The notes beneath the pieces were generated by a model. The model made no database searches. It was not told the DNA's origin and was given only the letters and a program-made list of their open reading frames with translations. Below are positions 7,720 to 52,103 of a stretch of 64,000 bases of DNA, one piece after another. The number at the start of each line of letters is the position of its first letter. Within the stretch, counting starts at the first letter, position 1. Location of the stretch: IMG/VR virus record IMGVR_UViG_3300037962_000140, positions 1-64,000 of that record. One strand, 5' to 3'. The DNA comes from an uncultured virus (IMG/VR IMGVR_UViG_3300037962_000140) (lineage: Duplodnaviria; Heunggongvirae; Uroviricota; Caudoviricetes). The position numbers and the translations under genes were made by a program.

Positions 7720-7726
7720 GATTATT

Positions 7727-8071: not shown

Positions 8072-8079
8072 GGAGCCTG

Positions 8080-11688: not shown

Positions 11689-11783
11689 CGACTCTAGGCG
11701 TTTTCCTAGTGCAGCGACTTCAGACGCTAATCTGATGCAACGACTTTGGGCGTTTACCCNNNNNNNNNNGTTTACCCAATGCA
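11688..11783 (+). repeat. tandem array of 26-nt covarying hairpin units upstream of groES
   Basis: RCGACT-stem5-CGYTWW-stem5-TGCA x3, stems CTAGG/CCTAG, TCAGA/TCTGA, TTGGG/CCCAA. Confidence 0.8.
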
Positions 11784-11793
11784 AGGAGAAGGT

Positions 11794-13214: not shown

Positions 13215-13224
13215 GGAGTCAATA

Positions 13225-13680: not shown

Positions 13681-13723
13681 CCCTTTGTTGCTGGGTTGCT
13701 TCTATAATTAAAGGAGGTCATTT

Positions 13724-14311: not shown

Positions 14312-14324
14312 AGGAGATTAAAGA

Positions 14325-15263
14325 ATGGCTATTTCTAGAGCGCAAATGCTTAAAGAACTCCTGCCTGGGCTTAATGCCTTGTTTGGTTTGGAGTATGAAA
14401 AATACGAAGACGAGCATGATCTCATTTATGAGACCGAAAGCTCCGAGCGTAGCTTTGAAGAGGAAGTAAAGTTGAGTGGCTTTGGTGCTGCTCCTGTAAA
14501 AAACGAAGGTTCTGCAATCTCTTATGATTCAGCGCAAGAGTCTTTTACTGCACGATACAACCACGAAACTATTGCTATGGGATTCTCAATCACGGAAGAA
14601 GCGATGGAAGATAATTTGTATGACTCACTGTCTGCACGTTATACCAAGGCTCTTGCCCGTGCTATGGCGTATACCAAGCAAGTTAAGGCGGTTAATCCTC
14701 TTAACAACGGTTTCACTAATTCATTTCAGTCTGGTGATGGGGTTAACCTGTTTACCGCTTCTGGTGATGGTGTTACTGGTGGTGACGGTCACCCGCTAGT
14801 TAATGGCGGCAAAAATAGTAACCGTCCTTCTACAGCGGCAGACCTGAACGAAACATCTTTAGAGAATGCAATTATTGATATTGCTGCATTTACTGATGAG
14901 CGTGGTTTGTTGATCGCTGCTAGACCTCGACGCTTAATTGTTCCTCCCGCTTTAATGTTTACAGCAGATCGTCTGCTTGAAACAGCGCAGCGTGTGGGCA
15001 CAGCAGACAATGATCTTAACGCAATACGCAATATGGGAGCGATCCCTGAGGGTTATGCTGTTAATCACTATCTGACTGACAGCAATGCGTTTTTCATCAT
15101 TACTGATGTTCCTAACGGTATGAAGCACTTCAACCGTACACCATTGGAAACATCAATGGATGGAGACTTTGATACTGGTAACGTGAGATACAAATCAAGG
15201 GAGCGATACTCTTTTGGAGTAAGTGACCCACTTGGAATTTACGGATCACCAGGATCTAGCTAA
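14325..15263 (+). CDS. major capsid protein
   Basis: MAISRAQMLKELLPGLNALFGLEY N-terminus, LIVPPAL, RERYSFG; followed by a terminator. Confidence 0.9.
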   Translation: MAISRAQMLKELLPGLNALFGLEYEKYEDEHDLIYETESSERSFEEEVKLSGFGAAPVKNEGSAISYDSAQESFTARYNHETIAMGFSITEEAMEDNLYDSLSARYTKALARAMAYTKQVKAVNPLNNGFTNSFQSGDGVNLFTASGDGVTGGDGHPLVNGGKNSNRPSTAADLNETSLENAIIDIAAFTDERGLLIAARPRRLIVPPALMFTADRLLETAQRVGTADNDLNAIRNMGAIPEGYAVNHYLTDSNAFFIITDVPNGMKHFNRTPLETSMDGDFDTGNVRYKSRERYSFGVSDPLGIYGSPGSS

Positions 15264-15270
15264 CGGATTT

Positions 15271-15298
15271 GGGGGCGCTTTGCGCCCCCTTTTCTTTT
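15271..15298 (+). terminator. rho-independent terminator
   Basis: GGGGGCGC TTT GCGCCCCC followed by TTTTCTTTT. Confidence 0.9.
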
Positions 15299-15353
15299 CC
15301 TGACTAATTGTTTCACATGGAACATTAGACACTAGCCAAGACAGGAGACATAC

Positions 15354-15863
15354 ATGGCTAATACTACTTTCACAGGTGCTGTGCGATCTGAAAGCACCTT
15401 TAAAACTGTAAGCAAGAATTCAACTACTGGCGCTATTACTGAGGTTACTACTGTTGGTGACGGCCCTGTCAGCCTTTCTGACGGAGATGTAACGCTTACC
15501 AATGCAACTCATAGCGGCAGAATCTTACTTGTCCCAGATGGTAGTCAAGATAACACCTACACTTTACCAGCGCCTATTGCTGGATCTGTATTTAGGTTTA
15601 TTTATGCTGGCGCAGCCGCTGATGCTACTGATGCAATTATTGTTACTCCCGGCAATAGCAATTTTTATATTGGCGGTGTGACCTTATTGGATACAGATGG
15701 TGACTCAATCAGTAGTGTTTTTTCTAATGGAAGCTCAAACAGCAGTATTCAATTAAATGTTCCTGCGGGATTTGATGTGACTATAGTTGGTTTAAATACT
15801 ACCAATTATCAAATCTTTGGAAATGTTACGAGTACCACTGCTCCTGCATTTGCTGATCAATAA
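15354..15863 (+). CDS. virion structural protein
   Basis: 169 aa Thr/Ser/Gly-rich, AGGAG RBS. Confidence 0.7.
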   Translation: MANTTFTGAVRSESTFKTVSKNSTTGAITEVTTVGDGPVSLSDGDVTLTNATHSGRILLVPDGSQDNTYTLPAPIAGSVFRFIYAGAAADATDAIIVTPGNSNFYIGGVTLLDTDGDSISSVFSNGSSNSSIQLNVPAGFDVTIVGLNTTNYQIFGNVTSTTAPAFADQ

Positions 15864-15875
15864 TAGGAGTCAATT

Positions 15876-16280
15876 ATGGCTGATGCGGTAGCGACTCAAA
15901 CGATACAGGATGGCGCTAAGACCGCCATCTTTCGTTTTACAAATGTAAGTGATGGAACTGGCGAGTCTGCTGTTACCAAGATAGATGTATCTTCTTTGTC
16001 TAATGATCCAATGACAGACAAAGCTTGCTCATCTGTTGTTATTGAAAAGATTTATTACCAAACCATTGGGATGGGGGTAAAGATATTTTTTGATGCATCA
16101 ACAGATGTCTTGGCATGGCAGTTGGCTGCGGATTGGTCAGATACATTAGACTTTTCAGATTTTGGCATACCAGATACAAAAGCCTCTGGAACAACAGGTG
16201 ATATTCAATTTACAACTGTTGGCCATTCTAGCGGTGATGTATATGTAATCGTTATGCAAGTGAGGAAACGATATGGCTAA
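15876..16280 (+). CDS. virion structural protein
   Basis: 134 aa beta-rich, AGGAG RBS. Confidence 0.7.
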   Translation: MADAVATQTIQDGAKTAIFRFTNVSDGTGESAVTKIDVSSLSNDPMTDKACSSVVIEKIYYQTIGMGVKIFFDASTDVLAWQLAADWSDTLDFSDFGIPDTKASGTTGDIQFTTVGHSSGDVYVIVMQVRKRYG

Positions 16281-16557
16281 ACTTGAAATGTTTGTTAATG
16301 GTAACTTTGCTGATGGCGAAGAGGTTTACCAGATCGGAACGAAAAACAAAGACGGCAGCGGCCAAACCGCTGACGGTCAATATGATATTGTTGTTTTTGA
16401 TCCAATGCGTAAACCTGAAGCAAAAGCTAAGCTAAAGGAGCTTTTAAAAAGTGCTGACAAGCCTGCAAAGAAAGAAGCGGAAAAGAAGGCGACTAAGAAA
16501 GATCCAGAGACTAAATCGGCTCCGAAAAAAAGAAAGAGTCCATCAAAGTCAAAGTAA
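16273..16557 (+). CDS. hypothetical protein with Lys-rich tail
   Basis: overlaps both neighbours. Confidence 0.6.
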   Translation: MAKLEMFVNGNFADGEEVYQIGTKNKDGSGQTADGQYDIVVFDPMRKPEAKAKLKELLKSADKPAKKEAEKKATKKDPETKSAPKKRKSPSKSK

Positions 16558-16655
16558 TGGCAATAGCTCGTCCTCAGACAGGTAAGCAAGTAAAAAACTC
16601 TCCATCTAAAAAGAAACGATCAAAAGTTTCTAATACAAAGAAAAGGAAAAGGTAA
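16557..16655 (+). CDS. 32 aa basic peptide (MAIARPQTGKQV...KKRKR)
   Basis: TAATG coupling; fills the gap exactly; below the ORF-track cutoff. Confidence 0.55.
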   Translation: MAIARPQTGKQVKNSPSKKKRSKVSNTKKRKR

Positions 16656-16656
16656 T

Positions 16657-16941
16657 ATGCCAGATAAAATACTCTCGGCAATAAGTCCCGCCTATGGGAT
16701 AGCAACTGGGACAGGGCCTTATAGAAATCTATTAGGTGTTGTTGGCAGAGGTATATATGATCGTGCCGCCTCTAAACGTGAAGATAAAAAAAGAAAAGAA
16801 GAAAAAAAACAGGAGCTTGATGCTTTAAAAAAAGAAGTAGAGGCTGGCGCTTATAAACCTCAAGCAATGATGAGAGGAGGCAGGGTAAAACCTGTTGATG
16901 GTTGCGCTATTAGAGGCAAAACAAAGCCCCCAGTATTTTAA
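16657..16941 (+). CDS. hypothetical protein with MMRGGRV motif
   Basis: 94 aa ORF in the late operon. Confidence 0.6.
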   Translation: MPDKILSAISPAYGIATGTGPYRNLLGVVGRGIYDRAASKREDKKRKEEKKQELDALKKEVEAGAYKPQAMMRGGRVKPVDGCAIRGKTKPPVF

Positions 16942-17634
16942 ATGGCTACCAGCGGAACATTTGCTTTTAATCTGGATATTGGAGAGGCGATAGAAGAAGC
17001 CTTTGAAAATATTGGGATGGAGCTTAGAACTGGTTATGATTACAAAACTGCCAGAAGAAGTATTGATCTTTTAATGCTTGAATGGCAAAACCGTGGTCTT
17101 AACTTGTGGACAGTTAAATTTGGAACTCAAGCATTAACTGCCGGAACAAGTTCTTATACTTTAGATGGCAAGATATTTGACATTGTTGAAGCATTTATAA
17201 GAACAGACTCTGGTGATGTAGATAATCAGTTTGATCAGAATTTAACCAGAATATCTATTAGTCAGTATTCTCATTTATCCAACAAGCTTAGCAAATCAAA
17301 ACCTCTTCAGTATTTTGTTGAAAGAACTCCAACAGGTATTGTTGTCAATCTATGGCCTTCCCCAGACGATCAAAAAACATATACCTTAGGGTATTACTAC
17401 ATGGAAAGAATTGAAGATTCAGGAAAGCCTGCAAGCAACAATATGGATATCCCATCAAGATATCTTCCTTGTTTGATTTCTGGTCTTTCTTACAGGCTTT
17501 CTTTGAAATATCCGCCTGCAAATGATCGATCTGCAATACTAAAAACAGAATACGAGTCTCAATGGGAACTAGCTTCTAGCGGGGGAAGAGACAAGGCTTC
17601 TTTATTTATAGCTCCAGGAGGTTATAGATTTTGA
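16942..17634 (+). CDS. putative head-tail adaptor / tail tubular protein
   Basis: 230 aa, EWQNRGLNLW, LWPSPD; position. Confidence 0.65.
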   Translation: MATSGTFAFNLDIGEAIEEAFENIGMELRTGYDYKTARRSIDLLMLEWQNRGLNLWTVKFGTQALTAGTSSYTLDGKIFDIVEAFIRTDSGDVDNQFDQNLTRISISQYSHLSNKLSKSKPLQYFVERTPTGIVVNLWPSPDDQKTYTLGYYYMERIEDSGKPASNNMDIPSRYLPCLISGLSYRLSLKYPPANDRSAILKTEYESQWELASSGGRDKASLFIAPGGYRF

Positions 17635-17972
17635 GTTATGCTGCCGGAAAATATGCATTTGGGTACTGCGATCTAACTGGATTTAGATATCCAATCAAAG
17701 ATCTTGTGCCTCAAATAAAAAATGGCAGACCAACTGGTTTGAGGGTAGGTAAGGATGTTGTAAGTCCAGATCAACCTCAATTGCAACTTGGTAGATTAAG
17801 ACTCGATGATCCTCAGGCGTTGAGGAATCCAAGACCAGATCAGAGCTTAGAGGAAAGCAGAAAGTTTTTTGCATTTGATCCTGTTGGTGGAGGAGTTACT
17901 TCTTTGGGCAGTAGGACAGTGGGTCTAAATATAGAGGCAAAAGTTGGACAAGTTACGGTGACTACAAGCTAA
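17631..17972 (+). CDS. hypothetical protein
   Basis: AFGYCDLTGFRY, DPQALRNPRPD; coupled to neighbours. Confidence 0.7.
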   Translation: MSYAAGKYAFGYCDLTGFRYPIKDLVPQIKNGRPTGLRVGKDVVSPDQPQLQLGRLRLDDPQALRNPRPDQSLEESRKFFAFDPVGGGVTSLGSRTVGLNIEAKVGQVTVTTS

Positions 17973-18613
17973 TGGCGTGGACATATACAACATTAAAGAA
18001 TGCGATTCAGGATTATCTTGAAACAACAGAAACTACGTTTGTTAACAATTTGCCAGTTATTATTAAACAGGCAGAAGATAGAATTCTTAAAAGCATTCAG
18101 TTACCTGACTTTAGAAAAAACGTAACTGGATCCACAACAGATGGAACTCCATATCTTACTATGCCCTCTGATTTTTTAGCCCCTTACTCTCTTGCTGTAG
18201 ATAATAGTGGTTATGAATTTTTAATATTTAAAGAAGTTAGTTTTATTAGGGAGTCGTATCCTGTAGCAACAACGGAAGGCATTCCTAAATATTACGCAAT
18301 TTTTGACGAAAACACTTTTATATTAGGGCCAACTCCTAATGCTAATTTAACAGCAGAGCTTCATTATTTTTATAAACCAGAATCTATTACGGCATCTAGC
18401 GATGGAACTAGTTGGCTGGGCACTAACTCTGAAAGCACATTGCTTTATGGATCTCTTGTTGAAGCGTATACATTTCTTAAAGGTGACGCTGATATGTTGA
18501 ATTTATATACAGCAAGATATGAAGATGCTTTAGGTAAATTAAAAGCTTTGGGTGAAGGATATGATACAACCGATAGTTATAGATCGGGAAGCGTCAGACA
18601 GGCGAGGCGTTAA
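17972..18613 (+). CDS. putative adaptor/connector protein
   Basis: 213 aa, GIPKYYA, LGPTP, LLYGSLVEA. Confidence 0.65.
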   Translation: MAWTYTTLKNAIQDYLETTETTFVNNLPVIIKQAEDRILKSIQLPDFRKNVTGSTTDGTPYLTMPSDFLAPYSLAVDNSGYEFLIFKEVSFIRESYPVATTEGIPKYYAIFDENTFILGPTPNANLTAELHYFYKPESITASSDGTSWLGTNSESTLLYGSLVEAYTFLKGDADMLNLYTARYEDALGKLKALGEGYDTTDSYRSGSVRQARR

Positions 18614-18900
18614 TGATCGAAGTTAGTACTAGTGGTGTTGGGAGCGTTAATGTTGTTACCACTAACAATGCAGGGTTACCCGTTGAGCATTGGGCAGAAA
18701 GAGCAACAAATACTATTGTTTCTGTTGGAGGCAATAGTCACCCGATAATACAAGAACAAGCAGAAGCTTTTAAAGAGCAAGTATTTCATGCTGTTAAGTA
18801 CTACATGGATGAAGCTGTAAAAAGCGATAGAACAACTTTAATTGCTCAACTTGAGTTAAACGGTCATAAAGACATGGCTGACATTCTAAGGAGACTATAA
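18613..18900 (+). CDS. hypothetical protein
   Basis: TAATG-coupled ORF. Confidence 0.65.
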   Translation: MIEVSTSGVGSVNVVTTNNAGLPVEHWAERATNTIVSVGGNSHPIIQEQAEAFKEQVFHAVKYYMDEAVKSDRTTLIAQLELNGHKDMADILRRL

Positions 18901-19376
18901 TGGCGATTACCCAGGCTGTGACTACCTCGTTTAAATCCGAGTTGTTACAAGGAATACATAACTTTCACAATGGATCTGGTGGCGGTACTACAACTACTAC
19001 AGGAACAGGCAATACGTTTAAGATTGCTTTGTTTACCAGTGATGCAACCATGTCAGCGTCTACTACAGCTTACGCAACAACTAACGAAGTATCTGCGACA
19101 GGCACAGGTTATACGGCTGGTGGTAATACGCTAACTAATGTAGATCCAACTACATCAGGAACTACAGCACTTACAGATTTTGCTGATACTACTTGGTCTA
19201 GTAGTTCAATTACTGCAAGAGGAGCGTTAATTTATAACTCTTCTACCACCGCAGGAACAGCTAACAGGGCAGTTGTTGTACTGGACTTTGGCGCAGACAA
19301 AACATCTACAAGTGGCGACTTTACTGTTGCTTTCCCAACGGCAGATGCGAGTAACGCAATAATTAGGATTGCATAA
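18900..19376 (+). CDS. virion structural (tail-associated) protein
   Basis: FKIALF, GYTAGG, ARGALIYN, VLDFGADK. Confidence 0.7.
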   Translation: MAITQAVTTSFKSELLQGIHNFHNGSGGGTTTTTGTGNTFKIALFTSDATMSASTTAYATTNEVSATGTGYTAGGNTLTNVDPTTSGTTALTDFADTTWSSSSITARGALIYNSSTTAGTANRAVVVLDFGADKTSTSGDFTVAFPTADASNAIIRIA

Positions 19377-19384
19377 GGTCTGAT

Positions 19385-20086
19385 GTGGCAGATGTCAAAG
19401 TTGCATTTGATGGATGGAATTCCTCGTCTCATGGATGGGGTGAGGGAACGTGGGGTAATGGGTCTGCTTTCCCAGCAAGCACAGCGTCTGTTGGATCTGT
19501 TTCAGTTAGTGCGGATGCGAATGTCGCAGCAACAGGAAATTCGGCAACAGTCTCTGTCGGATCGGTATCTGTATCCGCTAGTGCGAGTGTGTCTGTATCT
19601 GGCAATGCTGCTACTGCAAGCGTTGGTTCGGTTAGTGTCACAGGTACGGCAAATGTATCGCCATCAGGTAACGCAGCTACCGCATCGGTTGGATCGGTAT
19701 CGGTCTCTGCCGATGCAAACGTATCGCCAAGTGGAAACTCGTCTACAGTCAGTCTGGGATCGGTTACGGTTACTGGTACAGCAACGGTATCCCCGACAGG
19801 AAACTCTGCGACAGCATCTGTTGGCAGCGTTACAGCGATTACAAGCAATACGATTCCTGTCACTAGCACAGAGCTTGTCGCGTCTACGTCAAGCGTTAGC
19901 ATCAATGGTGACGCAATTGTTGGGGTATCGGGTAATTCGGTTACAGTATCAACAACTACACCGCTTGTTTGGAGCCTGGTTGATGACAGCCAAACAGCAA
20001 GTTGGTCTGGGGTTAGTACAAGTCAAACACCAAATTGGACGGCTATTGACGATAGCCAGACACCTAATTGGAAAGAGGTAGCATAA
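19385..20086 (+). CDS. Ser/Val/Thr-rich repeat virion protein
   Basis: about 22-aa GNxATASVGSVSV repeats, Trp-repeat termini. Confidence 0.75.
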   Translation: MADVKVAFDGWNSSSHGWGEGTWGNGSAFPASTASVGSVSVSADANVAATGNSATVSVGSVSVSASASVSVSGNAATASVGSVSVTGTANVSPSGNAATASVGSVSVSADANVSPSGNSSTVSLGSVTVTGTATVSPTGNSATASVGSVTAITSNTIPVTSTELVASTSSVSINGDAIVGVSGNSVTVSTTTPLVWSLVDDSQTASWSGVSTSQTPNWTAIDDSQTPNWKEVA

Positions 20087-22804
20087 ATGGCAACTTACGT
20101 TAATGACCTAAGATTAAAAGAGATCGCCACTGGCGATGAATCGGGAACTTGGGGTACGAGTACAAATACGAATTTAGAGCTGATCGCAGAAAAATTTGGA
20201 ACAGGATCGGAAGCTCTTTCAGACGCTAGTACAGCAACCATTACGATGGCTGACGGTGCTAGTGATGCATTTCGCTCTTTAGCCCTTACTCTCACAGGCT
20301 CTCTTTCCCAGGCTTGTACAGTCACGTTAGCTCCAAATACTCTTTCTAACGTATGGGTAGTTCAGAACTCCGCTGGTGACACGGTTACACTAAGCCAAGG
20401 AACAGGCGCAAATGTGGTCATACCAAACGGCGGTATCCGAATGGTTGCCACTGATGGTGCTGGTTCAGGTGCAGCGGTTACAGATGTACTCGACGTACTA
20501 GGCGGCACAGGCAACGTAGGTTTGGGTAGCGGTGCGTTTGGTACAGGGCTTACCACAGGCACAGATAATGTAGCTATAGGCGAGAATGCTGGCGATGCCC
20601 TAACCACTGGGTCTGATAATACTTTGATTGGAGACAATGCGNNNNNNNNNNAAGCACTTAAAGTATTAAATGCTGGTACGGATGGTTATAACGTAGCTAT
20701 TGGTTACCAAGCTGGCGCATCAATGACTACGGGTACGTCAAATACTTTGATCGGTGGAGTTTCTGGAGACGTTATAACAACAGGATCGAACAATGTTGGT
20801 ATCGGAATTAATACGTTAGGCGTTCTTACAACTGGGAGCGAAAATATAGCCATCGGCACTGCTGCTTTAGATGCAGCTACTACCGCAGATGCTAACATAG
20901 CTATTGGACATGGTGCTTTAGGTGCTAACACTTCAGGCACTAAAAATACTTCAGTTGGGCATAGTGCATTAGATGCCAACACCACCGCAGATAACAACAC
21001 AGCAGTTGGGCATAGTGCTTTAGGGGCCAACACTACAGGCGCGGGATCAACCGCTGTTGGAATGAGGGCATTAACTGCTAACAGCACCGGAAGTAATAAT
21101 GTTGCCGTGGGTAAAGACTCTTTGTACGCTAATACCACTGGGTCTAATAATGTTGCAGTAGGGCTTAGTGCATTACAAAACAATACTACAGGTGAAGTTA
21201 ATTCGGCTTTTGGTACAACCGCGTTATTTACAAACACCACTGGCTATGGAAACACAGCAGTGGGCAAAAATGCTTTATATACCAACAATGGAAACAACAA
21301 CACGGCTGTTGGACATGAAGCACTAGAATTAACTTCTACTGGTAGTGAGAATACCGCAGTAGGTAGAGAAGCATTAGAAGAAAACACTACAGGAAATTAC
21401 AACACGGCTGTTGGCTATAGAGCGGCAGATTCTGTCACTACTGGAACCTACAATATAGCTATGGGCCGAAGAGCACTAGATTCTGTAACAACAAGCTCTT
21501 TTAGCGTTGCAGTCGGAGCAAGTGCTTTAGAAAACAGTACAGCGGCGGGAGCAACAGCTGTTGGACACGCAGCTTTGGCCGCGAATACTTCTGGCCTTTA
21601 TCCAACGGCTTTCGGCTTTGAAGCATTAAAGGCAAATACTACGGGCGAAGGCAACTTGGCCTTCGGATACGAGGCCGGTCACGATATAACTACAGGGAGT
21701 ACGAATCTAGCCATCGGATTCAGGGCGTTGGATGGAAACAGTACAGGTGGTTCTAATATAGCCATCGGAAACAATGCTCTAGGAAGCGCGAATAATTTTA
21801 ATCACAACATGGGAATTGGACTCCAAGCGGGTATTTCGATGGCAACTGGCACACAGAACATTTTCATCGGAAATTACGCAGGTGATGGAGCTACGGCTGG
21901 AAATAACTCAGTCGCTATCGGATATGAAGCGTTTACTGGAGCATCCACGACAGGCGGCGAACACGTTGCGATTGGGGTAGGGGCATCTTCAGCTATAACC
22001 ACGGCTACTCAAACAGTGGTCATAGGAAAATCTGCGGGTGACGCAATAACCACATCAAGTTCTTGTACAATTGTTGGCGCACTTGCTGGAAGCTCTCACG
22101 CAACTGGCGGGGGTGTAACTGCAATTGGTTTCGAGGCTGGTGCAGTTAATACGAACAGTGGCAACACGTTTATTGGATCAGAGGCGGGAGAATTAAATTC
22201 TACAGGGTATAACAACACGTTTCTTGGAAACGATGCAGGAGACATCGTAACTACTGGTTATCTTAATACCACGCTTGGAATAAATTGTAATCCAAGTGCG
22301 GCTGACGGTTATGGTCAAATTGTTGTTGGCGCAGATTTAGATGGAATAGGTAATAATTATTTTACTTTAGGGCGCAATCCTGAAGGTCAAGTTTATAACC
22401 AATATTCTGCTAATGCTTCTTGGACTAGGGCTTCTGATGTCAGGCTTAAAAAAGAAATAGCTGATAACACAGATTGTGGACTAGACTTTATTAACGATTT
22501 GCGTCCAGTAACTTTTAAGTGGAAAGCTCCCTCAGAAGTTGATTCGGATATGCCAACTTATGATCCTGATAAAACTGAACATAGTTACACATCAAAGATG
22601 TATGGGCTGATTGCTCAAGAAGTTAAAGCTGCTTTGGATAAACATAACATTACAGATTTTGGAGGATGGCATGAAACTCCAACTGACAAAGTTCAAGGCG
22701 TATCGCAAGAGATGTTTATTCATCCTTTAATTAAAGCGGTGCAAGAACTTTCTGCTGAAGTTAATACATTGAAGTCGGAAATAGCTGCACTCAAAGGAGG
22801 CTAG
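20087..22804 (+). CDS. tail fibre with NTAVGxxAL repeats and C-terminal peptidase S74 chaperone domain (contains gap 20642-20651)
   Basis: many N.A.G..AL repeats; SDVRLKKEI, LRPVTFKW, GLIAQEV, LIKAVQEL. Confidence 0.88.
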   Translation: MATYVNDLRLKEIATGDESGTWGTSTNTNLELIAEKFGTGSEALSDASTATITMADGASDAFRSLALTLTGSLSQACTVTLAPNTLSNVWVVQNSAGDTVTLSQGTGANVVIPNGGIRMVATDGAGSGAAVTDVLDVLGGTGNVGLGSGAFGTGLTTGTDNVAIGENAGDALTTGSDNTLIGDNAXXXXALKVLNAGTDGYNVAIGYQAGASMTTGTSNTLIGGVSGDVITTGSNNVGIGINTLGVLTTGSENIAIGTAALDAATTADANIAIGHGALGANTSGTKNTSVGHSALDANTTADNNTAVGHSALGANTTGAGSTAVGMRALTANSTGSNNVAVGKDSLYANTTGSNNVAVGLSALQNNTTGEVNSAFGTTALFTNTTGYGNTAVGKNALYTNNGNNNTAVGHEALELTSTGSENTAVGREALEENTTGNYNTAVGYRAADSVTTGTYNIAMGRRALDSVTTSSFSVAVGASALENSTAAGATAVGHAALAANTSGLYPTAFGFEALKANTTGEGNLAFGYEAGHDITTGSTNLAIGFRALDGNSTGGSNIAIGNNALGSANNFNHNMGIGLQAGISMATGTQNIFIGNYAGDGATAGNNSVAIGYEAFTGASTTGGEHVAIGVGASSAITTATQTVVIGKSAGDAITTSSSCTIVGALAGSSHATGGGVTAIGFEAGAVNTNSGNTFIGSEAGELNSTGYNNTFLGNDAGDIVTTGYLNTTLGINCNPSAADGYGQIVVGADLDGIGNNYFTLGRNPEGQVYNQYSANASWTRASDVRLKKEIADNTDCGLDFINDLRPVTFKWKAPSEVDSDMPTYDPDKTEHSYTSKMYGLIAQEVKAALDKHNITDFGGWHETPTDKVQGVSQEMFIHPLIKAVQELSAEVNTLKSEIAALKGG

Positions 22805-22806
22805 AA

Positions 22807-23145
22807 ATGTCGGTTACTAAAACACTAATCAAAGCAATTCCTACTAATGAAGAAGGAAAGGTGGTTAGCTGGTACATAGACTTTAAGTATGAAAAAGGCA
22901 CTGAAGGCGAAGCTGACTACCACTCTAATGTTTTTCATAAAAACATCCCTGCGGTTAGACAAAAACCTAGCAAAACTATCAACAACTTTACTCCGAAGGC
23001 AGAGGCTGATTGGTCTAAAGCAGACATAATCGCAATTTGCCCAATCGAACTTTGGGATCAGGTTTTTGACGCTCAATACGATCAGGTTATTACAAACCCA
23101 GAGAAAGAACGAACTGAAAATACTAGTTACGTTATTCCAGATTAG
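22807..23145 (+). CDS. tail-fibre-associated protein, paralog 1
   Basis: shares YExGTEGEADY and QYDxVITNP with the next gene. Confidence 0.7.
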   Translation: MSVTKTLIKAIPTNEEGKVVSWYIDFKYEKGTEGEADYHSNVFHKNIPAVRQKPSKTINNFTPKAEADWSKADIIAICPIELWDQVFDAQYDQVITNPEKERTENTSYVIPD

Positions 23146-23154
23146 GAGACTTAA

Positions 23155-23496
23155 ATGGCTATTAAGAAAACATTAACTGATGCAGTACCTTTTGTTTTGG
23201 ACGGAAAAGTAGTTCGTTGGAGTCTTACAATGAAGTACGAGCAAGGTACTGAAGGCGAAGCGGATTATTACACGAATGATAAAAACGAAACAGTTGAGGC
23301 TAGTGAAGTAAACCCAGACGGTTCAACCACTACTAACTTTACAGCCAAAGCTGAAGGTGATTGGACTAAAAAAGAACTGGAAGACCTTTGCCCAACAGCA
23401 AAGTGGGATGCAGTGTTTGCAAGTCAATACGATTCGGTAATTACTAACCCACCTAAAGAACCTGTAGCTAATAACGAGTTTGTGATACCTAGCTAA
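23155..23496 (+). CDS. tail-fibre-associated protein, paralog 2
   Basis: tandem paralog of 22807..23145. Confidence 0.7.
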   Translation: MAIKKTLTDAVPFVLDGKVVRWSLTMKYEQGTEGEADYYTNDKNETVEASEVNPDGSTTTNFTAKAEGDWTKKELEDLCPTAKWDAVFASQYDSVITNPPKEPVANNEFVIPS

Positions 23497-24200
23497 TGGA
23501 GCCGCAACACTTTACATTTCATACGCTACCAGCAGTATTTATGCTGGAGGCACAACTATCTGAAAACATGGTAGGGACTCTTAACGACTACCTAGATAAG
23601 CTAATGGTAGATCAGGAACGTAAAAGTCATGCGGGTACGCTAGTGGGTCAGATAGCCCATGGACAGCAGCTTACAATGGATCATCATTGTGAAGAGCTGA
23701 AAGATTTTAACTGGACGATTCAGGGCTTGGCAATGGATTACGTCAAGCAGTTCTGCGCTCAGTCTGGCAACCCATTGAAAGGCAAAAGAGAAGTATTAAC
23801 TGATGAGCTTTGGTCTGTTCATTCTTACGCTGGCGATTACAATCCCATACATGATCATGGTACTAAAACTATTATGGGAGTCTCCTGCACAACATGGACA
23901 AAAGTACCACAACAAATCCTAGACCAGCCTACGGCGGGGAGTGCAGAGTACAGCTTATATAACTCCTCTGGCAATGCAGACGGTTGCCTTGCGTTTAGCT
24001 ATGGCCGAAACAGTTTATTAGATACGGAGCGATTAGCTCCCCCACAAAGTTTTGTAATCAAGCCAGAAGTCGGAAAGTTCTTGATGTTTCCTAGCTGGTT
24101 GACGCATATGGTTTACCCTTTCGAGGGTGAAGGAGAACGGCGTACTGTCGCTGCAAATTTAAACGTATGGAAGGTAGATGATGACGGAACAAGACACTAA
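23496..24200 (+). CDS. 2OG-Fe(II) oxygenase
   Basis: YNPIHDH, FPSWLTHMVYPF, ERRTVAAN. Confidence 0.85.
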   Translation: MEPQHFTFHTLPAVFMLEAQLSENMVGTLNDYLDKLMVDQERKSHAGTLVGQIAHGQQLTMDHHCEELKDFNWTIQGLAMDYVKQFCAQSGNPLKGKREVLTDELWSVHSYAGDYNPIHDHGTKTIMGVSCTTWTKVPQQILDQPTAGSAEYSLYNSSGNADGCLAFSYGRNSLLDTERLAPPQSFVIKPEVGKFLMFPSWLTHMVYPFEGEGERRTVAANLNVWKVDDDGTRH

Positions 24201-46285: not shown

Positions 46286-46317
46286 TGCTTTACCTTCTAA
46301 GGGTCTTTAAGTAAACT
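46282..46317 (+). promoter_or_regulatory. phage promoter motif driving the modification cluster
   Basis: TTAGTGC-TTTACC-N17-TAAACT. Confidence 0.75.
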
Positions 46318-46340
46318 AATAAATAAGAAAGGAGAAATAA

Positions 46341-46865
46341 ATGAATATATTTGTTACTGACCCAGATCCAGTAATAAGTGCACAGACGTTGTGTGATAAA
46401 CACGTTGTCAAGATGGTACTTGAATCAGCGCAGATGTTATCTACAGCTTGGCGCGAACCTAACGATCTAAGGTCGAGTGAATTCTCGTCAAAGTACGCAG
46501 ACGAACATGAATTATACAAAACCGCACATCCTAATCACCCCTGTAGTATTTGGGTTAGACAAGCTCGAGAAAACTATAAGTGGTTATACAGACACTTCGT
46601 TGCTTTGTGCGATGAGTACACACACCGCTACGGGAAAAGTCATGCCTCTGCTAGACTCAAGGGGCCATTGATGTGGCGTCCTTTTAGATCTAGTGCCCTA
46701 CTAGATGCGATAGAAGAACCTTACGGGTTCGTACTAGCAATGCCAGATGAATATAAGTCAGACGATGTGTTTGACTCTTATCGAAATTATTTAATAAACG
46801 AAAAACAACATTTTGCTAAATGGGAGAAAGACCCTAGCCGCAAACCAACATGGTGGAGAACATAA
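46341..46865 (+). CDS. pyrimidine-dimer DNA glycosylase-like (DenV family)
   Basis: MNIF, DKHVVKM.LE.AQMLST, H.NHPC..W, EY..RYGK.H, AMPDEY. Confidence 0.8.
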   Translation: MNIFVTDPDPVISAQTLCDKHVVKMVLESAQMLSTAWREPNDLRSSEFSSKYADEHELYKTAHPNHPCSIWVRQARENYKWLYRHFVALCDEYTHRYGKSHASARLKGPLMWRPFRSSALLDAIEEPYGFVLAMPDEYKSDDVFDSYRNYLINEKQHFAKWEKDPSRKPTWWRT

Positions 46866-47728
46866 TGGCTTCTATTAGGAAGAAACTCGAAGAAAACGTA
46901 AACAACAGTAAAAACACTCGAATGGATATTGCTAGTGGAAATATGCTAGGAAACTGGCGACCTGACGAGATCACCCACATGACTCGTTACGATAAGATTT
47001 CCTCGCTCTGTATCGAAGAAGCGAAGAAATTAGGCAGACCTATCAACACGCTAGAGGCAGGATGTGGAGAGATATGGGTTCTTAGAAATCTGTACAAAGC
47101 CTACACCGTTAAGAAGTCTGACATCATCGCCTCTTATCGAGGAGTCGATATAGACCCTGCGTGTCTCAACGAGAAACAAGGGTACAGCAGCCCGACAGGA
47201 CTAGTAGAAGATTCTACTTGGTTTAAGAACTTCAACGGGCAGATCGATATCCAAGACCTTACCGTTAACCCTGTATTCGATTTACCTGATAACTCTATTG
47301 ATTTCTTCTGGACGACAGAAGTTATTGAACACATGAACCGAGAGTTCATTCAAGCGTGGCTTGATGATGCTAACCGTGTTTTGAGACCAGGAGGTTTGAT
47401 TTACGTCTCTACACCTAACCACGACGGCTCCAACGATAAGTTGCCTGAAGACCACATATACGAATGGGGGTTCGAAGAACTCAAGAAAGAGTTGACCCGA
47501 TATACTCGAGGATGGTTTTTACAATCTGTAGTTGGTACGTTCGCTCAGATGCCTAAACTAAAAGCAGCTATGCATAAAGACAACGAAGACGGTGAGTGGC
47601 GGTTGATGGAAGACCAGTTCGAGTTATTACAAGAACGCTACGGTAAACAGTTTCTTAGAGTAGTAGCCGCGACGTACTTCCCAGAAGTATCTAACAACTG
47701 TGCATGGATATTAAGAAAGAAACCATGA
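46865..47728 (+). CDS. class I SAM-dependent methyltransferase
   Basis: LEAGCGE, GVDID, EVIEHM, VLRPGGLIYVSTPN. Confidence 0.88.
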   Translation: MASIRKKLEENVNNSKNTRMDIASGNMLGNWRPDEITHMTRYDKISSLCIEEAKKLGRPINTLEAGCGEIWVLRNLYKAYTVKKSDIIASYRGVDIDPACLNEKQGYSSPTGLVEDSTWFKNFNGQIDIQDLTVNPVFDLPDNSIDFFWTTEVIEHMNREFIQAWLDDANRVLRPGGLIYVSTPNHDGSNDKLPEDHIYEWGFEELKKELTRYTRGWFLQSVVGTFAQMPKLKAAMHKDNEDGEWRLMEDQFELLQERYGKQFLRVVAATYFPEVSNNCAWILRKKP

Positions 47729-48675
47729 GCCAGATGCCTTTTATTTCAGAAGAGCTTGTTCTCTATCTGTATTGGATAGAAGAACGAGAGCGGATTAGAC
47801 GAAAGAAAGAAGATGCTGAAGCTGACCCGCCTTGGACTGAAGATGAGATTTTCAAGAAGTTCAAGTTCTGTCAAGTCTTTCGAGAAGACGATAGAACAAC
47901 TCGTTGGTTCGCTGCTCATATACGCAGACCGTTATCTGCTGAACCTGAAGTAGCGATGGCAACGATCATCTTTAGATTTTTCAACTTGATTGAGACAGGA
48001 AGAACGCTGTTAGACCACAATCTACATCTCGAGTGGGATAGAGAGAAAGCTATCGAAGAGATCAGTAAACAACCTAAATGGGTAACAGGAGCTTATATCG
48101 TTAAGACTCCTAATCGCATGAACAAGGTCAAAGGTGTTGCTGAATGTGTTTCTCATATCTGGTCTAAACGTGAACAGCTACTTGCTGCGCTAGAGAGAAT
48201 GACCACCCTTGAAGAGGCGTGGTCTTTTCTCATGCAGTACCCGTATATCGGTCCTTTCGTTTCGTACGAAATTGTAACTGACTTACGACACACCTATCTG
48301 TTAAACGAAGCAACAGATATCCGTACTTGGGGTAATCCAGGACCAGGAGCCATGAGAGGATTGAACAGACTAACAGGTAGACCACTAGACTTTACTCGTA
48401 AAACACACGACTGGCATACAGAGATGCGAATCCTGTACGACATTTGTCAAGAAGAACTAACAGTTCCTGGAATGACCACAGATAGTCCGTACTACCGAAT
48501 GCCGTTTGAAATGCGAGAGGTAGAGGGAGGATTGTGCGAGTTCGATAAGTACTCTCGAATATATAAAGGAGAAGGCCGTACACGAAGCGTGTATGACTAC
48601 TCTAATAGGGAAATGCCACTAATAGAAGATTTACATAAAGGAGAAAGCAAATGGGTAAACTCAAACAACACGTGA
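47725..48675 (+). CDS. 5-hmdU DNA kinase-like protein (aGPT-Pplase1/HMUDK family)
   Basis: ERE.IR, PPWT.D.I..FKFCQVFREDDRTT, FRFFN, IGPF.SYE.VTDL, GPGA.RGL, E..LCEFDKY. Confidence 0.82.
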   Translation: MSQMPFISEELVLYLYWIEERERIRRKKEDAEADPPWTEDEIFKKFKFCQVFREDDRTTRWFAAHIRRPLSAEPEVAMATIIFRFFNLIETGRTLLDHNLHLEWDREKAIEEISKQPKWVTGAYIVKTPNRMNKVKGVAECVSHIWSKREQLLAALERMTTLEEAWSFLMQYPYIGPFVSYEIVTDLRHTYLLNEATDIRTWGNPGPGAMRGLNRLTGRPLDFTRKTHDWHTEMRILYDICQEELTVPGMTTDSPYYRMPFEMREVEGGLCEFDKYSRIYKGEGRTRSVYDYSNREMPLIEDLHKGESKWVNSNNT

Positions 48676-48887
48676 TGGAAGGGGAAGAAAGCTACGCTGA
48701 AAAAGTGATGTTTTATTACGGTAACTTCCTAGTTGGATGTATGGAAGATAGGACGATGCCTAACACGTGGCAGGACGCTATCAACGCGATACATTGGTCT
48801 ATGTATTTCGAAGGGAAAGAGATTAGTCGATTGCAGATCGAATATATTCTTAAAGAGAACACGGAGAGTTTATATGAAGACGATTAG
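48651..48887 (+). CDS. hypothetical protein in the modification cluster
   Basis: AAGGAG RBS; overlaps both neighbours. Confidence 0.6.
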   Translation: MGKLKQHVMEGEESYAEKVMFYYGNFLVGCMEDRTMPNTWQDAINAIHWSMYFEGKEISRLQIEYILKENTESLYEDD

Positions 48888-49941
48888 AGCTAGGAACGTG
48901 GATGAAGCTCTTTATTTAGGAGTGGACTTTTTTCGAGGCCCAGAAGGGGTCAACTACAGAAAGCAAGAAAGTAGAAATGGAATGACAAGAGAAGCCCTTG
49001 GACCAGTAGTCACTCACTTCACGAGACCTTGGGAACGTGTTTCATTTCAGAAAGAACGCGATGCAAATCCTTTCTTTCATTTGTACGAAGCTATCTGGAT
49101 GTTAGCAGGATCTAAAGAACTAAAGAAGCTGACTTATTTCAACGCAGGCATGGCTAACTTTTCAGACGATGGGGTGACGTTAAACGGTGCTTATGGGTAT
49201 AGATGGACTAAGACCTTTATGTGGAATCAGATCGACATAATTATAAAAATGCTAAAAGAAGACCCAGACTCTAGGCGTTGTGTATTACAAATGTGGGACG
49301 GTGTGCACGACTTGAACAGTTCGAGTATCGACATACCCTGTAACACAAACATCTATTTCAAAATCCGAGATGGAAAATTACAGATGACAGTCTGTAATCG
49401 GTCGAACGATATGATTTGGGGAGCTTACGGAGCCAACGCAGTCCATATGTCAATACTAATGGAATACGTTGCCGTTGCAGTAAACGCCCCGATGGGTTCG
49501 TACTACCAGATCAGCGATAGTTTTCACATCTATGAAAATGAACAATGGGACAAGATAAAGGATTTATCAGGTAGAGGATTCGGCTCTTGGTTTTCTTCCA
49601 CTTACCCTTCACCTCACTATCCCTTGGTCTCAGACCCAGCCACATTTACCGATGAGTGCATGAAGTTTATACAGACTACTCCTCCTACTCGACGGTCTGG
49701 AAACCCAGAAGAAGTGGATGCGTTCTCACCGTCGTTTACTACGGAAACCTATAACAACACGTTCTTTCCTGACGTGATGATACCGATGGTTTCAGCATTT
49801 AGAAGCCACAAAGAAAGAAACTACAAGGAGGCTTATGACTTTCTTAAAGAAATTAAAGCACTGGATTGGCAAGAAGCCGCATTCCATTGGATTAAACGAA
49901 GACAACTTAATTGGGAGAAGAAACATGGGACTGGATCCTAA
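48874..49941 (+). CDS. thymidylate-synthase-family enzyme, probable dUMP hydroxymethylase
   Basis: RDANPFFH, GAYGYRW, DIPCN, RSND..WGAYGAN (Asn at the dUMP-specificity position), HIY. Confidence 0.82.
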   Translation: MKTIRARNVDEALYLGVDFFRGPEGVNYRKQESRNGMTREALGPVVTHFTRPWERVSFQKERDANPFFHLYEAIWMLAGSKELKKLTYFNAGMANFSDDGVTLNGAYGYRWTKTFMWNQIDIIIKMLKEDPDSRRCVLQMWDGVHDLNSSSIDIPCNTNIYFKIRDGKLQMTVCNRSNDMIWGAYGANAVHMSILMEYVAVAVNAPMGSYYQISDSFHIYENEQWDKIKDLSGRGFGSWFSSTYPSPHYPLVSDPATFTDECMKFIQTTPPTRRSGNPEEVDAFSPSFTTETYNNTFFPDVMIPMVSAFRSHKERNYKEAYDFLKEIKALDWQEAAFHWIKRRQLNWEKKHGTGS

Positions 49942-50275
49942 GTGGCAGGATGTTAAGTCTATTGCGCAGGAAGATATACACAGCCTGATTGAGTCTGAGA
50001 AGTCGTACGGAGACTCTTGGAGAAGACGCGGCGGCACTGGGGCGTTTATGATGTTAGCTCGTAAGTTCGACCGTATCGAACAACAGAGTAAAGACTGTAA
50101 CTACGATATTTTCGAAGCGGGAGACAAGTACAACGGCGAGGACGGCCTACTAGACGATATAGGGGATCTTAGACGATACCTCTTACTAGTAGAGCATCAC
50201 ATCAGATACGGCTCTAACGAGCTTATAGAGGAAAAGGTAAGGGATGTCGAGACAGATACCGTTGATTCAGCCTGA
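49925..50275 (+). CDS. DUF1599/Nmad1-like nucleotide-modification-associated protein
   Basis: YGDSW, K.DRI, DDIGDLRRY. Confidence 0.7.
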   Translation: MGLDPKWQDVKSIAQEDIHSLIESEKSYGDSWRRRGGTGAFMMLARKFDRIEQQSKDCNYDIFEAGDKYNGEDGLLDDIGDLRRYLLLVEHHIRYGSNELIEEKVRDVETDTVDSA

Positions 50276-52103
50276 GAGCGAGTGGGCAGCTCCTGAGATA
50301 CTACCCTCGTTTGCACCTACTGAAACGATTGCGGTAGACCTTGAGACATATGATCCTGATCTATCGAAAACAGGACCAGGATGGGCTACGGGAAAAGGAC
50401 ACACGGTAGGTATTGCACTAGCCACTGAAACGTGGTCAGGTTATCTTCCCATACGACACGAGGGCGGTGGTAATTTAGAAGAAGAACTTGTCCTACGTTG
50501 GCTCAAGAACACTCTTGAAAACCATAAAGGCACACTCGTTTTCCACAATGCACTTTACGATGTAGGCTGGCTCAAGCGAGAAGGGATCGACATAAAGTGT
50601 TCTATCAGAGACACGATGTTTGCGGCTCCTTTGCTAGACGAGAACAGAAGATCCTACTCGCTAAACAATCTAGGAAAAGATTACTGCGGAGAAGAGAAAG
50701 ATGAGTCATTATTACATGATGCGGCAACCGCTTGGGGGGTAAGCACTAAGGGAGGACTCTACGCACTTCCCGCCAAGTATGTTGCACCTTACGCAGAGCA
50801 GGACGCTGTCCTGACTTTAAAACTCTGGGCTATCTTCAGCAAGCTGATTGCCTCGGAGGGCTTACAAAAAATCTACGACCTAGAGTGCGATCTCATTCCT
50901 CTGTTAATCGAAATGCGATGGAGAGGAGTGAGGATCGACCTCGACCGAGCACATCAGGTATCAGAAGAACTATCGAAAAAAGAGCAGCAGCTTCTAGTTG
51001 AGTTTAAGAGAAAGTTTGGTTCCAGTGTTGAGATCTGGTCTAACGCCTCGATACAAAAAGCCTTCGATAACAATGACATATGGTATCCACACACAGAAAA
51101 AGGGATGCCTAGTTTCCAAGCTAATTGGCTCGAGAATCACGACCACGAACTACCGAAGATGCTGGTCGCTGCTCGAAAGCTAAACAAAGCTCGGACTACG
51201 TTTATCGACGGAATGATTTTAGAACATTGTTCAGACGGTAGGATTCATGCTGAAGCCCATCCGCTGCGCAACGATGAAGGAGGAACGGTCACAGGTAGAT
51301 TTAGTTACTCGAATCCAAACCTACAGCAAGTTCCTGCTAGAGATCCTGAGATCGGTAAGATGATTCGATCGCTGTTTATTCCTGAAGAAGGAGCACATTG
51401 GGGAGTGTTCGATTACTCTCAGCAAGAACCTAGAATCACGGTGCACTACTCATCATTGCTCGGACTTACAGGAGCAGAGGAGGCAGTAGAAGCCTACTCC
51501 AGCCAAGATGCAGACTTTCATCAGATCGTAGCAGATATGGCTGACATACCTAGAAAGCAAGCTAAGAATATCAATCTCGGCTTGACTTACGGAATGGGCA
51601 AAGACAAGTTAATTCGAGAACTCGGACTCGAGTCAGAAGAAGCGTTTCAGCTGTTGAACAAATATCACGATCGAGTACCTTTTATTAAAGGGATACAATC
51701 GATGTGTACTCGGATGGCAGACCAGCGAGGCTACATTACAACACTCGGCGGTCGAAAATGTCACTTCGATTTGTGGGAGCCTAGCCACGGCGAACGATCG
51801 ACTCCTCTACCTCACGAAGAAGCACTCGATAAATATGGTCAGTCGATCAAACGATCGTTTACCTACAAAGCACTTAACAGATTGATCCAGGGATCAGCAG
51901 CTGACATGACGAAACTTGCAATGCGTGACTTGTGGAAAGAGGGACTTGTTCCACATCTACAAGTTCACGATGAACTCGACTACTCGGTCGAGACAGAAGA
52001 GCAAGCTCAGCTCATTATCGACAAGATGGTGAACTGTGTTGAACTAAAGGTTCCACTAGTAGTGGATTACGAAAAAGGACAAACATGGGGCGAAGCAGAA
52101 TGA
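50244..52103 (+). CDS. polA: DNA polymerase family A
   Basis: DLET and FHNALYD exonuclease motifs, TGRFS..PNLQQ, DYSQQE, KNINLGLTYG, IQGSAAD, VHDEL. Confidence 0.95.
   Translation: MSRQIPLIQPESEWAAPEILPSFAPTETIAVDLETYDPDLSKTGPGWATGKGHTVGIALATETWSGYLPIRHEGGGNLEEELVLRWLKNTLENHKGTLVFHNALYDVGWLKREGIDIKCSIRDTMFAAPLLDENRRSYSLNNLGKDYCGEEKDESLLHDAATAWGVSTKGGLYALPAKYVAPYAEQDAVLTLKLWAIFSKLIASEGLQKIYDLECDLIPLLIEMRWRGVRIDLDRAHQVSEELSKKEQQLLVEFKRKFGSSVEIWSNASIQKAFDNNDIWYPHTEKGMPSFQANWLENHDHELPKMLVAARKLNKARTTFIDGMILEHCSDGRIHAEAHPLRNDEGGTVTGRFSYSNPNLQQVPARDPEIGKMIRSLFIPEEGAHWGVFDYSQQEPRITVHYSSLLGLTGAEEAVEAYSSQDADFHQIVADMADIPRKQAKNINLGLTYGMGKDKLIRELGLESEEAFQLLNKYHDRVPFIKGIQSMCTRMADQRGYITTLGGRKCHFDLWEPSHGERSTPLPHEEALDKYGQSIKRSFTYKALNRLIQGSAADMTKLAMRDLWKEGLVPHLQVHDELDYSVETEEQAQLIIDKMVNCVELKVPLVVDYEKGQTWGEAE

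Follow-up and report, generated by a model that had tools for sequence, protein, structure and literature searches.

How a phage might modify its thymidine without the kinase and transferase of every characterized thymidine hypermodification is the question raised by a run of seven genes at positions 46341-52103 of a 64,000-nt stretch of viral DNA (the window, positions 1-64,000 of the 81,920-b record IMGVR_UViG_3300037962_000140). Central to this run are, in order, a class I S-adenosylmethionine (SAM) methyltransferase, a protein of the HMUDK_hel family (clade-1 aGPT-Pplase) and a thymidylate synthase (TS) homologue, with a family A DNA polymerase (PolA) at its end. Their predicted functions support the view of a thymidine-modification-type cassette that combines a dUMP-hydroxymethylase-type TS homologue with a SAM methyltransferase and has no amino acid:DNA transferase (ADDT). 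We propose, with a probability of about 0.45, that the product is DNA in which 5-hydroxymethyl-2'-deoxyuridine (hmdU) is O-methylated to 5-methoxymethyl-2'-deoxyuridine, as deduced from gene linkage and motifs. The phage host of the cassette is uncultured and marine, with a genome of roughly 60 kb.

The TS homologue (355 aa from the ATG at 48874; 48874..49941, + strand) matches PF00303 (E 5e-21) and phrog_5131 (E 3e-105). In the E. coli ThyA numbering given in PMC13326640, replacement of L143 by D or E is characteristic of hydroxymethylases, D169N of 5-hydroxy-dCMP synthases and N177D of dCMP use. At positions 143/146/147/169/177 the TS homologue reads D/C/N/D/N, and the Asn at the dUMP-specificity position that a preliminary description of this DNA had pointed out is therefore N177. 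The same five residues are found in the enzymes of M6, PaMx11, PhiJL001, the SPO1-like Bacillus phage JL and the ViI-like Salmonella phage GG32, while E. coli ThyA and T4-like td read L/C/H/D/N. The DNA of M6, PaMx11 and ViI-type phages is reported to carry hmdU-derived bases (PMC8989533). A maximum likelihood tree of 38 rows places the TS homologue in a clade with M6, PaMx11 and PhiJL001 (99/99), which a wider clade (95/93) extends to the SPO1-like and ViI-like enzymes. Among 50,697 phage records, the enzymes that match it best over the full length are of the M6/YuA type, with 40-41% identity over 99% of the length. Overall, its predicted role as a dUMP hydroxymethylase supplying hmdU is well supported.

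It is highly improbable that there is no base replacement at all, with the TS homologue making dTMP beside unrelated neighbors. Public records do label this enzyme family thymidylate synthase, but where ThyA proper would have L143, H147 and N177 and scores over the NCBIfam TS equivalog cut-offs, this protein has D143 and N147 and lies far under every one of them (best 88.3 versus 174.55). The true synthases, E. coli ThyA and T4-like td, are set apart from it in the tree at 100/100, and its nearest full-length relatives (38-41% identity) include the PhiJL001 enzyme and those of M6/YuA-type phages with hmdU-derived DNA bases. A 5-hydroxy-pyrimidine route leading to a 5-methoxy base was also considered and rejected, since a 5-hydroxy-dCMP synthase needs both D169N and N177D and the residues here are D169 and N177. 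As a separate observation, the annotated dCMP hydroxymethyltransferase of Klebsiella phage AmPh_EK29 (L138 235-948) has E143, N169 and D177, which by the D169N criterion of PMC13326640 is the signature of a putative 5-hydroxy-dCMP synthase as opposed to that of a hydroxymethylase.

If hmdU is supplied, the enzymes that would normally act on it are missing. Compared with the 5-HMUDK/ADDT pathway, for which we relied on Lee et al. (2018; PMC5889632), the 2021 paper (PMC8989533) and the gp46 structure paper (PMC11472151), the cassette has the hydroxymethylase (five-residue signature and 99/99 clade) but neither of two defining features, the kinase and the transferase. Table 1 of PMC8989533 lists the P-loop proteins PaMx11 gp49 and M6 gp54 as the kinases and gp46 and gp51, both of which match Pfam ADDT, as the transferases. 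Searches of the whole record for the P-loop 5-hmdU kinase (PF18748 in six frames; PaMx11 gp49) and for ADDT (PF18724 in six frames; PaMx11 gp46) were empty at E <= 10, and a Walker A scan placed an N-terminal P-loop solely in the UvrD helicase. Both families were likewise absent from all five relatives searched, each 97-100% complete. As controls, four phages were searched in the same way: the kinase was found in three, GG32, M6 and PaMx11 (the last under cut-off), and ADDT in the same three, over or near cut-off. The fourth, PhiJL001, is without PF18748 and matches PF18724 only weakly, in the C-terminal part of gp19 (E 7.8e-4).

The open reading frames (ORFs) scanned from the whole record, in batches of 12, 39, 24 and 32 sequences with two repeats included, contained no ADDT, pyridoxal phosphate (PLP), radical-SAM or flavin adenine dinucleotide (FAD) family. 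The preliminary description had seen no ADDT, PLP or radical-SAM gene in the window, and this extends to the scanned ORFs of the record; the contig-wide profile check that it had called for recovers PF18723 and not PF18724, with no canonical transferase elsewhere. These absences carry weight because the record exceeds one genome length: related records measure 58-68 kb at a rated completeness of 97-100%, so that the gene content of the phage has been wholly seen. The structural module occurs twice, and its diverged copy at 66428-81920 (L004 4428-19920) has 65-90% identity to the first at 6712-23159. The record is exactly 81,920 b, against 58-68 kb in its relatives, and appears to be a chimeric or concatemeric assembly that joins two related phages and may have been truncated at a set length. 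Two new bases had been suggested as end products: methylated 5-phosphomethyl-dU is rejected as unlikely because the contig has no P-loop kinase, while O-methylated hmdU is the one that our tests support best.

The enzyme proposed to act on hmdU is the methyltransferase (292 aa; 46850..47728, + strand; Pfam Methyltransf_23/11). As had been noticed, it is a class I enzyme without the DPPY or PC motif, and its motif IV position reads STPN. In an alignment of 42 family members G73, E160, H161, H202 and G229 are invariant, and E157, D100, D136, T188-P189-N190 and E205 nearly so. When the family profile was run against all PDB sequences, bacterial Hen1 came first (4xrp, 1.2e-10) and human HENMT1 second (4xcx, 3.2e-10), in alignments that cover the EVIEH, STPN and DHxYEW motifs; UbiG and PMT scored within a factor of ten of Hen1. 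The metal ligands E796/E799/H800/H860 of HEN1 correspond to E132/E135/H136/H181 of HENMT1 (PMC10781085), and counting along the profile alignment maps this tetrad to E157, E160, H161 and H202. The AlphaFold2 (AF2) model is of high confidence (pLDDT 93.1), and in a wide structure search HEN1 (3htx) ranked second among 48,161 chains (Z 16.9, root-mean-square deviation (rmsd) 2.7, 191 aligned residues, 20% identity).

From these motifs we propose that the methyltransferase works like a Hen1-type metal-dependent O-methyltransferase. It shares with Hen1/HENMT1 (3htx, 4xrp, 4xcx, 3jwg) the class I fold, the four metal ligands and the EVIEH, STPN and DHxxEW motifs, but has N-terminal (~60 aa) and C-terminal segments of its own, is confined to viruses and is linked to pyrimidine hydroxymethylases. 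It is not a Hen1 orthologue, because it has no accessory domains, no Pnkp partner and no NCBIfam family over cut-off: the N-terminal ligase-activating domain of Hen1, a Pnkp/ligase partner and double-stranded RNA-binding domains had no Pfam or NCBIfam match in the methyltransferase or the scanned ORFs of the record. Among 1.84 billion, 445 representatives reach E <= 0.001 and 59 reach E <= 1e-10, which makes this a narrow family; the nearest Atlas clusters are 95-100% viral. Close relatives are present in Tara, JGI and ENA data.

What the methyltransferase acts on is suggested by its neighbors. The order methyltransferase, HMUDK_hel, TS homologue is found in all 46 related loci that reach downstream, at methyltransferase identities down to 53% (a 47th, L008, stops at the methyltransferase), and in 28 of another 31, all except L165 (a dCMP-type cassette), L166 (nothing recognized) and L169 (contig end); since these loci are kin, the counts measure retention rather than independent association. 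In one locus (L036) a 0.9-kb insertion separates the methyltransferase from HMUDK_hel and holds small ORFs only, none of them kinase-like as judged by length only. An independent set is provided by 80 distant relatives of the methyltransferase (22-32% identity to P0133), and a TS-family gene lies within 8 kb of 74 of them. Of the six others, three are at DNA ends (L056, L110, L129), two are L062 and L098, and the last, L122, is a generic methyltransferase without the tetrad. The E..EH and downstream His ligands are kept in 79/80, and gene orders vary: methyltransferase, NTP-PPase, dNMP kinase, hydroxymethylase, deaminase; methyltransferase directly beside TS; or kinase, TS, methyltransferase. 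D177 is present in every one of the 74 neighboring TS homologues, 72 of which read D/C/T/D/D at the five positions, as expected of a dCMP hydroxymethylase. The methyltransferase thus travels with hydroxymethylases of either pyrimidine, so that the feature common to its contexts is the 5-hydroxymethyl group, and this is the main reason why we propose O-methylation of that group.

Among the distant cassettes are those of AXL3-like and freshwater T4-type 5-hydroxymethylcytosine phages (methyltransferase, NTP-PPase, dNMP kinase, dCMP hydroxymethylase, dCMP deaminase), which have the same methyltransferase family at 26-28% identity, the same tetrad and the same linkage to a hydroxymethylase-type TS homologue. 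They differ in D177 (dCMP), in their nucleotide-pool partners and in having no HMUDK_hel, whereas the group of the window is characterized by dUMP use, the presence of HMUDK_hel and no dedicated dNMP kinase or NTP-PPase. One such dCMP-type cassette is borne by the cultured phage AXL3, whose DNA was reportedly cut by only 2 of 37 restriction enzymes, TasI and Tru1I, both with A/T-only sites (PMC7504290). If our proposal is true, the same methyltransferase family would explain this restriction resistance.

The gene between the methyltransferase and the small ORF ahead of the TS homologue encodes HMUDK_hel (323 aa; 47704..48675, + strand), which matches PF18723 over profile positions 5-276 of 281 (E 1.3e-42; 146.5 bits, cut-off 25). 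Translation probably begins at the ATG at 47725, where this start and the methyltransferase stop share the sequence ATGA. Homologues include PaMx11 gp50 (41-43% identity to PaMx11-type gp50), M6 gp55 and PhiJL001 gp19. The gene had been described as aGPT-Pplase1/HMUDK-like; the family holds, but the kinase step does not, as its homologues are gp50 and gp55 and the kinases are the separate gp49 and gp54. The Pfam name is explained by SP10, where this domain and the kinase form one fused protein (Table 3 of PMC5889632), and M6 gp55, though part of the lysate mix, was dispensable for the product (PMC8989533). No fused form of at least 567 aa was found, which is weak evidence, and the relatives listed, all of them close, bear PF18723 alone. 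In full-text literature outside the subscription journals, PF18723 or aGPT-Pplase1 appears only in genome notes and the Lee papers. By its predicted features the PF18723 protein is a helical, glycosylase-like paralogue of ADDT and not a P-loop kinase. The AF2 model (pLDDT 80.5) has a predicted helix-hairpin-helix DNA glycosylase-like fold that matches MjOgg (Z 11.5, rmsd 3.5, 186 aligned residues) and PaMx11 gp46/PUGT (8z2n; Z 10.1, rmsd 4.4, 223 aligned), although a Z near 11 is middling for all-helical models and the Foldseek E-values for this model all exceed 0.001.

This kinship raises an alternative in which HMUDK_hel is itself an ADDT-like transferase: its Cys278 would attack C6 of hmdU or O-methylated hmdU, the C5 substituent would leave and another nucleophile would be added. 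The methyltransferase would then only activate or tailor, and the final base would not be 5-methoxymethyl-dU. A C-terminal motif of eight residues (R271, E274, L277, C278, E279, D281, K282, Y283) is invariant in 13 of 13 clade-1 proteins, PaMx11 gp50, M6 gp55 and PhiJL001 gp19 among them, and the protein of the window keeps it as EMREVEGGLCEFDKY (with C278 and E274). PaMx11 gp46 is described as flipping its target base from duplex DNA and attacking with the catalytic Cys247 (PMC11472151), and it is the ADDT motif holding this residue that aligns with the clade-1 motif. The weak match of PF18724 to gp19 and the structural match to gp46/PUGT point the same way, as does SP10, whose only glycosylase-like domain is the kinase-fused one (PMC5889632), so that a clade-1 domain may carry out the transfer there. 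Nevertheless, we regard this alternative as unlikely. The Cys motif is all that aligns between HMUDK_hel and ADDT in hhalign, over 20 columns and weakly (E 0.089), and M6 gp55 could be omitted from the reconstituted reaction. Additionally, a methyl ether or free hydroxyl leaves less readily than phosphate, the characterized transferases required the kinase, and no gene for making a donor or for tailoring (PLP, radical SAM, FAD) is among the contig ORFs scanned.

Under the O-methylation proposal, the TS homologue would turn dUMP into 5-hydroxymethyl-dUMP, the well-supported part of the pathway, host kinases would raise this to the triphosphate, and the adjacent PolA, which must accept the modified dNTP, would insert hmdU for some or all thymidine. 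The methyltransferase, with its Hen1-type Mg/Mn tetrad, would then methylate the 5-hydroxymethyl hydroxyl from SAM to give 5-methoxymethyl-2'-deoxyuridine, a methyl cap analogous in role to the glucose on T4 hydroxymethylcytosine. In the least certain step, the translationally coupled HMUDK_hel may flip hmdU from the duplex and present the base to the methyltransferase, or process it further. Neither a 5-hmdU DNA kinase nor an ADDT would take part.

We somewhat favor DNA over the mononucleotide as the substrate of methylation because of the ATGA gene overlap, the HMUDK_hel partner (a paralogue of a base-flipping thiol enzyme) and fusions to a C5-methylase-like domain. Four of the 80 distant loci encode the methyltransferase as a fusion with a C5-cytosine DNA methylase-like domain (PF00145, E ~1e-21): L058 (6756-8675), L086 (same coordinates), L093 (6168-8699) and, in part, L056 (1-951). 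In a further one (L060, 8813-9922) a C5-methylase-like gene adjoins it. The domain keeps the PC, ESV and QRR motifs, and the loci are of the hydroxymethylcytosine type. A C5-methylase has no ordinary substrate where hydroxymethylcytosine fully replaces cytosine. No such domain was found in the contig of the window or in its 47 and 31 related loci. Both partners, HMUDK_hel and the C5-methylase-like domain, would be thiol enzymes whose point of action is C6 of a pyrimidine flipped out of DNA, which has led us to a wider and on balance doubtful idea, drawn from these 5 of 80 loci together with inference. It supposes a DNA system of two modules, in which a C6-attacking, base-flipping thiol enzyme (HMUDK_hel here, the fused C5-methylase-like domain in some hydroxymethylcytosine phages) presents a 5-hydroxymethyl-pyrimidine to an O-methyltransferase that is metal-dependent and of the Hen1 type. 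This would yield 5-methoxymethyluracil in the phage of the window and 5-methoxymethylcytosine in the sister cassettes, that is, two undescribed natural DNA bases, and the enzyme would be the first known example of a methyltransferase whose target is a nucleobase hydroxyl in DNA. The same body of full-text literature yielded no mention of methoxymethylcytosine or methoxymethyluracil; the 5-methoxymethyl hits looked at concerned furan chemistry and similar, and among the matches listed (the best 20 of 72) none joined methoxymethyl to phage or hydroxymethyluracil.

Several observations weigh against 5-methoxymethyl-dU as the product or against parts of the proposed route. The structural resemblance to Hen1 is shared widely: an E. 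coli methyltransferase (4htf, Z 18.2) outranks HEN1, more than 50 class I enzymes score Z 14.7-18.2, and in Foldseek Hen1 is missing from the top 50, which are generic class I small-molecule and sugar methyltransferases instead. The methyltransferase reaches no NCBIfam cut-off, and no Hen1 family is among its five weak matches at E <= 0.1. The metal of Hen1 binds a vicinal ribose diol, and it is our conjecture that O4 and the 5-hydroxymethyl group could take its place. Both the methyltransferase and HMUDK_hel are acidic (pI 5.3 and 5.9), which is atypical of DNA-binding enzymes. The expected co-occurrence with HMUDK_hel holds in the methyltransferase's own group and fails beyond it: HMUDK_hel, like the PaMx11-type kinase and ADDT, is found beside none of the 80 distant relatives, and the methyltransferase therefore needs no HMUDK_hel in general. 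The distant cassettes mostly resemble nucleotide-pool operons, with NTP-PPase in 42/80, a dNMP-kinase-like gene in 36/80 and dCMP deaminase in 45/80, an appearance that favors mononucleotide methylation. Judging from its kept Cys/Glu motif, HMUDK_hel may have an enzymatic activity of its own, in which case the final base could differ. Finally, no dTTP-depleting enzyme was recognized in the contig, and the replacement of T may be partial.

Some of these points also fit with plain 5-hmdU DNA, possibly partial, in which the methyltransferase targets something else, such as an RNA 3'-end (Hen1-like 2'-O-methylation) or a small molecule. The closest solved relatives by profile are indeed RNA 3'-end 2'-O-methyltransferases, many small-molecule and sugar O-methyltransferases rank equally high in the structure searches, and the acidity of both proteins agrees with it. 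We nonetheless think it decidedly unlikely. If the methyltransferase were an unrelated RNA enzyme, one would not expect 74 of 80 distant members to lie within 8 kb of a hydroxymethylase-type TS homologue, in varied gene orders, nor the order of its own group to be kept (46/46 and 28/31). Neither a Pnkp or ligase partner nor the Hen1 N-terminal domain was found in the scans described above, and in some family members a DNA C5-methylase-like domain is part of the same protein.

Comparison with cultured phages shows where the O-methylation proposal departs from known systems. The clusters of M6 and PaMx11 share with the cassette the order HMUDK_hel, TS-family dUMP hydroxymethylase, small genes and PolA, but the kinase (gp49/gp54), the transferase (gp46/gp51) and the tailoring enzymes (FAD lyase, acetyltransferase, PLP, radical SAM) are theirs only, and the place of their kinase is occupied here by the Hen1-like methyltransferase. 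The cassette of PhiJL001, a phage of alphaproteobacteria, consists of gp19 (HMUDK_hel), gp22 (TAGT glycosyltransferase), gp23 (Nmad5) and gp24 (TS homologue). It resembles that of the window in being free of kinase and ADDT and in combining HMUDK_hel with a D/C/N/D/N hydroxymethylase, whereas the hydroxyl would presumably be the target of a TET-associated-type glycosyltransferase in PhiJL001 and of a methyltransferase in the window. In its own right, the gene set of PhiJL001 (L002 6920-10769) points to glycosylated hmdU, and we know of no report of this base in that cultured phage.

If the proposal is true, an abundant marine phage group has a DNA base absent from the catalogues searched, made by a short route of a hydroxymethylase and one O-methyltransferase that bypasses the kinase/transferase chemistry. 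Such a SAM-using 5-hydroxymethyl-pyrimidine methyltransferase would likewise be a candidate for use in tagging 5hmC and 5hmU. Additionally, a cassette free of kinase and transferase is a clean setting in which to learn the role of the clade-1 aGPT-Pplase (M6 gp55 type).

The run itself is as had been described, seven co-directional, overlapping genes, and it is one part of a longer replication module on the + strand (~41.5 to 57.5 kb). This module contains Pam3 gp32-34-like genes, an AEP primase, the UvrD helicase, the seven genes, a sigma-70 region-4-like protein and a DUF932 protein, as well as a Hjc-like ORF (a weak match under the Pfam cut-off). The single promoter that had been placed ahead of the run is not borne out: no + strand sigma-70-like site lies in 46286-46340, the 15 sites of the region compare with 19.3 expected by chance, and the best candidate by eye, TTTACC-17-TAAACT, matches at only 8/12 positions. 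In near and distant DNA searches of cultured phages the region had no relatives except short stretches of PolA and Pyr_excise.

The run opens with a Pyr_excise-like (T4 endonuclease V-like) gene (174 aa; 46341..46865, + strand), for which the earlier label of DenV-like glycosylase is confirmed by PF03013 (E 2.4e-12; 47.5 bits, cut-off 23; profile positions 1-75 of 81) and phrog_624 (E 2.5e-62). It is absent at this position from many related loci (e.g., L015, L016, L018, L020, L022-L024, L026, L028, L031-L036) and is probably a variable neighbor rather than a core part of the cassette. The small ORF between HMUDK_hel and the TS homologue was also correctly called; it is acidic (78 aa; 48651..48887, + strand), matches nothing in Pfam, PHROG or NCBIfam, and by tblastn occurs in closer loci at 49-100% identity but not in L028-L035 and L037-L049. 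The conserved ORF after the TS homologue (146 aa; 49835..50275, + strand) had been assigned to DUF1599, an assignment that is not confirmed: it has no Pfam match at E <= 1, a six-frame search with PF07659 (DUF1599) was empty at E <= 10, and the sole trace is the rank-3 ESM-Atlas cluster, with 11% DUF1599 members. This ORF is kept in most related loci (E 1e-25 to 1e-36 in 26 of the 31 further ones), and its position is held in M6/PaMx11 by an HD-domain nucleotidase. Neither small ORF had a phmmer match at E <= 10 among the neighbors of the PaMx11, M6 and PhiJL001 hydroxymethylases.

PolA (619 aa; 50244..52103, + strand) was identified as such from the outset and comprises a family A polymerase (PF00476, E 5.8e-62) and a 3'-5' exonuclease domain (PF01612, E 6.6e-14). 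Its best NCBIfam match is phage_DpoZ_1, an aminoadenine-incorporating family, at 357 bits and thus under the cut-off of 500. A 2-aminoadenine genome was rejected on this ground and because no PurZ-, DatZ- or MazZ-like gene is among the scanned ORFs.

Elsewhere in the window, a minus-strand block of ORFs at 72-5187 matches no family except, weakly, AAA_5 (1192-2040, E 3.4e-4), with no canonical Walker A. A 2OG-Fe(II) oxygenase (23496-24200; PF13759, E 1.5e-13), not of the Tet/JBP type, lies amid tail and lysis genes. Each copy of the structural module includes a Cpn10/GroES-like gene (window 11746-12174, E 9.5e-8; L004 9025-9456, E 3.1e-12). Lastly, an 80-aa ORF at 57912-58154 matches the SutA RNA-polymerase-binding domain (PF20661, E 2.3e-11) and may encode a phage factor that binds RNA polymerase.

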